This document shows positions 3,090-3,166 of a stretch of 4,497 bases of DNA, in pieces. The DNA is taken from the IMG/VR virus record IMGVR_UViG_2648501230_000017; one strand, given 5' to 3'. The notes under the pieces are model-generated. The model searched no databases. It was not told the origin of the DNA and saw only the letters and a list, made by a program, of their open reading frames with translations. A program made the position numbers and the translations under genes. The first letter of the stretch is position 1. Each line of letters opens with the position of its first letter. Origin of the DNA: a virus (Duplodnaviria; Heunggongvirae; Uroviricota; Caudoviricetes).

Positions 3090-3166
3090 CCGCCATTAGC
3101 TCATCGGCAGAGAGCGTCAGCTTTCGAAACTGGCTGTGTGGGGCCCGGGTCCCCGATGGCAATCCA
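3090..3166 (+). tRNA. tRNA-Arg(UCG)-like, degenerate (argN-like; possible pseudogene)
   Basis: 77 nt with tRNA architecture: D-arm GCTC/GAGC, anticodon loop TTTCGAA (U33, anticodon TCG, A37), encoded CCA at 3164-3166. Atypical features: the first two acceptor pairs are C:A mismatches, the anticodon stem has one C:A mismatch, and the T-loop is CCCGGGT rather than TTCRANY. Confidence 0.45.

Follow-up and report, generated by a model that had tools for sequence, protein, structure and literature searches.

The middle element of the tRNA cluster described here (Table 1) is an unannotated tRNA pseudogene in the well-known ileZ-argN-argO cluster. It lies between two intact tRNA genes in the window, i.e., the whole stretch of 4,497 nucleotides of viral DNA that was analysed (IMG/VR record IMGVR_UViG_2648501230_000017), and, as judged from its sequence, this copy of argN is almost certainly dead as a tRNA. 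Very probably it is a neutrally decaying argN pseudogene, which would be co-transcribed with its neighbours as a passive spacer. The element carries disruptive substitutions that are uncompensated, changes at an approximately neutral rate between constrained neighbours, and, if the anticodon loop and the CCA end are left aside, falls short of a working tRNA in all structural respects; it evolves without detectable constraint. A decaying argN-like pseudogene had been among the readings offered in the original prediction, and it is this one that is upheld by homology and synteny with argN, by a score below threshold, by uncompensated lesions which are still accruing, and by the invariance of the neighbouring genes.

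Organization of the tRNA cluster

The cluster consists of ileZ, the middle element, and argO, separated by two short spacers (Table 1). Both flanking tRNAs had been described as canonical, and both are indeed called by ARAGORN and score high in Rfam. The RefSeq designation of ileZ as tRNA-Ile implies lysidine-modified reading of AUA. In terms of the ileZ-argN-argO cluster known from lambdoid and Stx prophages, the middle element fills the argN slot and is hence syntenic with argN.

Table 1. Features of the tRNA cluster and its surroundings in the window (dots in the middle element separate the two sides of a stem from the loop)
Feature	Position	Strand	Basis or remarks
DUF1133 gene	775-1329		
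isrK-like match	1363-1436	+	21.6 bits (gathering score 50)
Inverted repeat, 25 nt	1902-1926 / 3398-3422		80% complementary, AT-rich
Putative tRNA promoter (TTGCAG, 17-nt spacer, TATTAT)	2969..2997	+	column-for-column alignment with 933W 'pT'
ileZ, anticodon CAU	3007..3082	+	ARAGORN; Rfam 72.5 bits; RefSeq tRNA-Ile
Spacer between ileZ and middle element, UCACAUA	3083..3089	+	as in 933W except for a 2-nt indel
Degenerate argN, tRNA-Arg(UCG) pseudogene, 'class B' allele with CCCGGGU T-loop	3090..3166	+	Rfam, ARAGORN, RefSeq, 933W alignment
Acceptor 5' strand, CCGCCAU	3090-3096	+	
D arm, GCUC. AUCGGCAGA. GAGC (loop AUCGGCAGA)	3099-3115	+	
Anticodon stem and loop, UCAGC. UUUCGAA. ACUGG	3117-3133	+	
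Anticodon loop, UUUCGAA	3122-3128	+	7 nt
U33; anticodon UCG; A37	3123; 3124-3126; 3127	+	
Variable loop, CUGUG	3134-3138	+	
T stem and loop, UGGGG. CCCGGGU. CCCCG	3139-3155	+	
Acceptor 3' strand, AUGGCAA	3156-3162	+	
U73; encoded CCA	3163; 3164-3166	+	
Spacer between middle element and argO, UUAUCUGCAUUAU	3167..3179	+	identical to 933W
argO, tRNA-Arg(UCU)	3180..3256	+	ARAGORN; Rfam 70.1 bits; RefSeq tRNA-Arg
STnc100 sRNA family (RF02076)	3953-4142	+	132 bits

A block of 281 nt around the cluster (2990-3270) is 100% identical to chromosomal prophages in many STEC and other E. coli, including H19. According to the RefSeq annotation of H19, the tRNA genes are preceded by genes for DUF968, RusA, DUF1133, a small ORF, and a DNA methyltransferase, followed by tRNA-Ile and tRNA-Arg, and downstream of the tRNAs there are DUF3927, IraM (on the opposite strand), an SASA esterase, a holin, and a lysozyme. 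The setting in H19 is therefore that of a lambdoid late region, in this case without stx. At 12 places sampled evenly from the 94 at which the class B allele occurs (in 87 complete genomes), RefSeq carries no annotation on the middle element.

The site upstream of ileZ corresponds in 933W to a 29-nt feature annotated as 'pT; putative tRNA promoter' in AF125520, and from this alignment we infer that it acts as the promoter of the tRNA cluster. Its -35 hexamer matches the consensus at only 3 of 6 positions; a strict sigma-70 scan of positions 2850-3450 returned no site upstream of ileZ and missed the pT homologue, and a terminator scan of the same interval found none.

Several further features were observed in the surroundings of the cluster. 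The STnc100 match is situated between the tRNA cluster and the opposite-strand iraM gene and is unannotated in the RefSeq version of H19; 933W and other loci likewise have STnc100 downstream of the cluster, where it sometimes adjoins AgvB/AsxR. A 2026 preprint describes STnc100 as related to PasD. The inverted repeat flanks the methyltransferase gene together with the tRNA cluster and could represent the borders of an inserted module, or chance. A weak isrK-like match, below the gathering score, lies directly 3' of the DUF1133 gene, and an identical match is present in the loci L087, L030, and L119. DUF1133 proteins are annotated as Q-like antiterminators, and the match may be a late-promoter leader RNA of this prophage type.

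Sequence and folding of the middle element

In the sequence itself, the arms of the middle element can be seen to have the lengths typical of class I tRNAs, with the residues UA between the acceptor 5' strand and the D arm and a single G between the D arm and the anticodon stem. These lengths agree with the original prediction, as do U33, the anticodon TCG, A37, and the encoded CCA. The element thus possesses U33, an anticodon loop of 7 nt, a purine at position 37, and a 3' CCA, and its T stem of 5 bp is intact. A20, C35, and G36, the identity nucleotides of ArgRS, are all present.

Pairing of the acceptor and anticodon stems, on the other hand, is incomplete: C1·A72 and C2·A71 are mismatched, as had been claimed and as is apparent both in the sequence and in the Infernal alignment, and the mismatched closing pair reported for the anticodon stem is real and corresponds to C31·A39. 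The T-loop had been described as CCCGGGT lacking T54-Psi55-C56. This holds for U54 and U55, which are both replaced by C, whereas C56 is retained; A58 is lost in addition, being replaced by G. A further lesion, which had been overlooked, is found in the D-loop, where G19 is replaced by C, as is evident from the D-loop consensus AUCRGGANA of canonical alleles. G18 is retained together with C56, but the elbow pair G19-C56 is gone.

In the Rfam tRNA family (RF00005), the element scores 22.2 bits (E = 0.31), below the gathering score of 29. ARAGORN does not call a tRNA at this position at default settings, and only with thresholds lowered to 95% is tRNA-Arg(tcg) returned, with an identical fold; a sister allele of class B with the T-loop CUCGGGU is called at default settings. 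A shifted register, or a better fold of the same stretch, can be ruled out, since Infernal and ARAGORN return the identical register. The fold that had been drawn by hand was accordingly in register, and no high-scoring canonical fold emerges when alignment shifts are allowed. The energy of the cloverleaf amounts to -16.9 kcal/mol, compared to -28.3 kcal/mol for argN of 933W, i.e., a loss of about 11 kcal/mol. The minimum-energy fold (ViennaRNA) is a non-tRNA structure of -25.9 kcal/mol, such that the cloverleaf is weaker by 9 kcal/mol than this alternative; the minimum-energy fold is itself no more stable than that of shuffled sequence (z = 0.10).

Divergence from the argN gene of 933W

For the 281-nt block, 289 phage records were matched, mostly of Stx2 phages and at about 93% identity. 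The matching records annotate three genes as ileZ, argN, and argO, in 933W in that order. The middle element aligns with the argN region of 933W at 86.6% identity over 97 nt (E = 1e-24), and its alignment to argN of Stx phages, which had been suggested as a check, shows it to be both homologous and syntenic. A chance tRNA look-alike is ruled out by this homology and by the slot and the spacers in common with 933W.

The differences from 933W are distributed very unequally, with none in ileZ, one in argO, 14 among the 77 nt of argN, and no substitutions in the spacers. The changes in argN are G19C, C to G at 20a, C27U, C32U, G39A, C47U, C49U, U54C, U55C, A58G, U63C, G71A, and G72A, as well as one further change in the D-loop. 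Six of them affect stems: pairs are broken at 39, 71, and 72, C-G is converted into U·G at 27 and 49, and G·U into G-C at 63, while none is compensated. Four changes abolish the elbow contacts G19-C56, G18-U55, and U54-A58.

Concerning argO, position 37 (window 3216) is A in the window, whereas it is G in 933W and three other loci. The argO allele of the window occurs in 63 of 118 surveyed loci among the matches listed, and most of the surveyed loci have A37.

tRNA genes are common att sites, and the middle element had also been considered as a possible integration target, i.e., a site resembling a tRNA at which an integrase acts, or the scar left by its action. In at least three of the surveyed loci a tRNA of this cluster is truncated after the anticodon loop, but it is argO and not argN. 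The middle element itself spans the whole 77 nt of argN in colinear order, with no partial duplicate, and point substitutions account for all of its differences from argN. Moreover, it is located in the middle of the prophage late region, no direct or inverted repeats in the window touch it, and no integrase is annotated in the stretch of 10 kb around it. An origin as an attachment site or its remnant is therefore extremely improbable. The argO truncation in these IMG/VR loci is situated at ...CUUCUAAGCAGCUGUGG..., just past the anticodon loop, and suggests recombination or insertion at this point in some prophages.

Variation of the argN slot among prophages

A survey with a pattern anchored in ileZ and argO, in which gaps of 80-110 nt were allowed, yielded at least 61 distinct middle sequences in at least 120 prophage contigs. 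They comprise the canonical argN (class A), an argN with A6·A67, A52·C62, and G58 (class A2), the type found in the window (class B), a type in which the anticodon arm is replaced and the T arm contains a G-run of variable length (class C), and a type in which the anticodon arm is deleted (class D). The Rfam scores of these alleles form a graded decay series, from 56.0 and 54.8 bits in canonical argN to 43.4 bits in A2, 26.4 bits in class B with the CUCGGGU loop, 22.2 bits in the window, and 20.9 bits in class B with G52A, whereas more decayed class B alleles and classes C and D give no match. The argN slot has been lost independently by point mutations, by arm replacement, and by arm deletion.

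Among 5426 complete E. coli genomes, the whole cluster is present at 7594 places in 3062 genomes. A 933W-like argN, annotated as tRNA-Arg, occupies 2429 places (1216 genomes), the unannotated class C 2336 places (1863 genomes), and class B 94 places (87 genomes). A degenerate middle slot is thus common, being present in about one half of all clusters in the complete E. coli genomes, and class B accounts for a small part of this loss. In the one case checked, the genome of locus L100 also contains locus L112, which has an allele of the 43-bit type.

Among sequenced phages, no class B allele was found, the best identity being 87.6%, and in the papers searched for ileZ, argN, and argO no discussion of this argN allele was found. 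Class C does occur in sequenced phages, including mEp460 and the viable phage phiP27, where it is unannotated between ileZ and argO. The occupant of class C is 80 nt long in L010, L015, L020, and other loci and has kept the acceptor stem, the D arm, and the T stem; its anticodon arm is replaced by ACGACACGAUAACAGGGUUGUUGG, and the G-run in the T arm varies between 5 and 12 G among loci. The class C sequence of phiP27 (L123:1502-1602) represents an older form, in which the UUCGAGU loop is intact.

A 20-mer specific to class B gave no match when one genome per species (GTDB) was searched, hence there is no evidence of this allele outside E. coli-type prophages. When species representatives were searched with a 17-mer taken from the 5' end, most matches were due to chance, apart from tRNA-derived relatives in other Enterobacteriaceae. 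One tRNA-derived element of 81 nt (L138:727-807, L157, L179, and others; H119-H126), which occurs in E. coli, E. albertii, E. ruysiae, and Shigella, possesses the acceptor, D, and T arms of argN, the anticodon arm being replaced by a stem of 7 bp with a loop of 6 nt. It is situated within the annotated gene yahM in 5169 of the 5426 E. coli genomes, is reported by ARAGORN as 'tRNA-Ser(gga)', and has no match in Rfam at E values up to 0.5. Its relatives in Klebsiella, Citrobacter, and Salmonella arizonae/diarizonae exhibit a hairpin, ACGAC-NNNN-GUUGU, whose tetraloop varies, and either reach 33-38 bits or give no match.

Constraint and rate of change

In total, 37 class B loci (prophage contigs) were recovered with patterns placed inside the element, such that the sampling does not fix the flanking sequences. 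Among these loci, 9 of the 77 nt of the middle element are segregating, compared to none of the 173 nt of ileZ (76 nt), argO (77 nt), and the spacers (20 nt), which are invariant in all 37; the contrast with the 153 nt of the two tRNA genes is significant (Fisher p = 3.8e-5). The nine sites are G18A, C25U, U/C at 27, A29U, G43A, G51A, G52A, U/C at 55, and C75U. Seven of these polymorphisms are damaging to stems, to elbow nucleotides, or to the CCA, which is changed to CUA in 6 of the 37 loci, and none of the nine is compensatory. C55, as found in the window, is the derived state, U55 being present in 24 loci. A similar picture is obtained across classes: in the 81 loci with a middle sequence of 77 nt among the matches listed, nucleotide diversity is 0.099 in the middle, compared to 0.002 in ileZ and 0.009 in argO.

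The methyltransferase allele upstream of the cluster, with which class B is linked, is 98.8-100% identical within the class and 70-90% identical to the alleles of other classes. Between the window and its close class B relatives, dS of the methyltransferase gene lies between 0 and 0.026, with 1 to 4 differences among the 77 nt of the middle element. The rate of change of the middle element within class B is therefore similar to, or higher than, that of linked synonymous sites.

Between the window and modules linked to class A or C, dS of the methyltransferase gene amounts to 0.44-0.50 and dN to about 0.05, while the distance of the middle element to argN of 933W is 0.21 and that of ileZ is 0. 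Since the whole module has diverged to this extent, the 14 differences do not reflect a local burst of mutation, and a hypermutation or conversion patch as the cause of these clustered differences, which was considered since the spacers agree with those of 933W, is unnecessary. Rather, it is the flanking tRNAs that appear as the conserved exception in an old, diverged module. The distance of 0.21 is less than half of the linked dS, which indicates that constraint was lost part-way along the lineage or that gene conversion intervened. The invariance of the spacers fits selection on them; alternatively, recombination could have shaped the whole block.

These patterns also bear on the reading of the element as a functional, unconventional tRNA-Arg(UCG) that would be processed and charged despite its odd acceptor end and T-loop. 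The retained U33, UCG anticodon, A37, A20, 5-bp T stem, and CCA would accord with it, as would the ARAGORN calls of the element at 95% thresholds and of the sister allele with CUCGGGU at default settings, and a C1·A72 mismatch is tolerated in bacterial initiator tRNA. Three stem pairs are broken, however, G19, U54, U55, and A58 are lost, the Rfam score remains under the gathering score, the cloverleaf is energetically inferior to the alternative fold, and uncompensated damage, extending to the CCA, accrues next to invariant neighbours. We regard such a function as very unlikely, and the same applies to the non-standard processing or identity originally proposed, given that class B accumulates damaging changes and that the broken acceptor pairs lie next to the RNase P site.

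Retention of the element as a structured spacer for processing is unlikely as well, albeit somewhat less so. According to this explanation, the tRNA-like fold would no longer work in translation but would direct cleavage by RNase P or RNase E, by which ileZ (at its 3' end) and argO (at its 5' end) are released from a tricistronic precursor. It would account for the fact that every variant of the slot keeps the 5' acceptor strand and D stem as well as the 3' T stem and acceptor strand, that both flanking spacers are invariant in the 37 class B loci, and that a clean loss of the slot was not encountered, the shortest gap between ileZ and argO being 81 nt (gaps of 80-110 nt scanned; among the matches listed). 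Yet precisely the pairs 1:72 and 2:71 at the RNase P site are broken, the elbow between T-loop and D-loop is destroyed, and the later changes within class B break stems and even the CCA, such that structure is not preserved. In E. coli tRNA operons, neighbouring tRNAs are matured without every member being intact, and a processing role is not needed to explain the data.

Proposed expression, persistence, and dispensability of argN

Under the preferred reading, that of a neutrally decaying argN pseudogene, ileZ, the element, and argO would be co-transcribed from the pT-like promoter and/or by late read-through, the element serving in the co-transcript as a passive spacer. The flanking tRNAs would be freed via the usual steps of RNase E, RNase P, and exonucleases, i.e., by the standard pathway of E. 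coli tRNA operons, and the misfolded middle piece would be degraded rather than usefully matured or charged. The persistence of the element would be due to its being short and situated only 7 and 13 nt from strongly selected tRNAs, since clean removal needs a precise deletion.

argN would be dispensable in so far as CGA and CGG are already decoded by tRNAs of the host. In the 13 annotated genes that surround the cluster, AUA is used at 12.9, AGA at 6.5, AGG at 5.2, CGA at 4.3, and CGG at 8.6 codons per 1000; the values for AUA, AGA, and AGG are presumably about three times the averages of the E. coli genome, those for CGA and CGG near average. The codons of ileZ and argO (AUA, AGA, and AGG) thus seem to be over-represented in the local prophage genes. 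The loss of the middle slot fits this codon use, which apparently favours AUA, AGA, and AGG over CGA and CGG, and codon use is a plausible reason for the dispensability of argN.

There is a small chance that the repeated loss of the argN slot reflects selection instead, either for a structured 'punctuation' element required in the maturation of ileZ and argO or against an active tRNA-Arg(UCG); this reading is based on the retention of an element of tRNA size, in which the end regions are mostly kept, and on the strict conservation of the spacers. Selection against the active tRNA could act, e.g., by avoidance of a host or colicin nuclease directed at tRNA-Arg. In a further explanation, the element might be a tRNA mimic or decoy titrating a factor that binds tRNAs (an anticodon nuclease, for instance, or a different defence directed at tRNA), or the inactivation of argN might itself be advantageous. 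This would agree with the independent routes of loss at one and the same slot (point mutations, arm replacement, arm deletion) and with the retention of UUUCGAA in all class B alleles found, although the first search pattern had fixed UUUCGAA. Positive evidence of selection is not seen, however; the polymorphisms within the class are spread over all arms, as in the case of a sequence without constraint, and a dispensable gene is equally expected to be lost repeatedly. We therefore consider a decoy or an adaptive loss highly improbable.

Implications

The pseudogene explains why two tRNAs instead of three are annotated in this prophage module, and this copy should not be counted as argN when the tRNA content of STEC prophages is scored. 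Taken alone, the element is of little significance. The one mildly noteworthy aspect is the recurrent loss of the middle tRNA by multiple routes with the neighbours kept invariant, a pattern that helps to gauge which phage tRNAs are selected, ileZ being essentially invariant and argO nearly so.

Comparison with known systems

The middle element is most similar to argN of the Stx2 phages 933W (AF125520), VT2-Sakai, Min27, and Stx2-86, with which it agrees in the slot, the length of 77 nt, the anticodon, and the spacers; a pT-like promoter sequence upstream is common to 933W and the window. Despite this similarity, argN of 933W is intact and scores 54.8 bits, whereas the element of the window reaches 22.2 bits with the pairs 1:72, 2:71, and 31:39 broken. 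The clusters also differ in their surroundings: in the window there are no stx genes downstream, a methyltransferase gene precedes the cluster, and STnc100 follows it. The non-coding stretch before ileZ in 933W (L001:2910-3016) aligns with window positions 2900-3006, which contain the 3' end of the methyltransferase gene, and 933W may thus keep a remnant of this gene upstream of ileZ.

In phiP27 (AJ298298), the order is methylase, ileZ, 101 unannotated nt, argO, and stx2e. Two tRNA genes have been described for this phage, compared to three in 933W-type phages (PMC4631060). The window and phiP27 are alike in the methylase gene upstream and in an unannotated tRNA-derived remnant in the middle slot. 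The remnant of phiP27, however, belongs to class C, in which the anticodon arm is replaced, with the acceptor stem intact and the UUCGAGU T-loop still present, whereas the element of the window has kept the anticodon arm of argN and exhibits point lesions elsewhere.

More generally, the element shares with other tRNA pseudogenes that it is derived from a tRNA, is rejected by gene finders and by curated thresholds, and evolves without constraint. Truncated tRNA copies at the attachment sites of prophages are one example of such pseudogenes. Unlike these copies, the element of the window is of full length, altered by point mutations, and situated within a tRNA operon.
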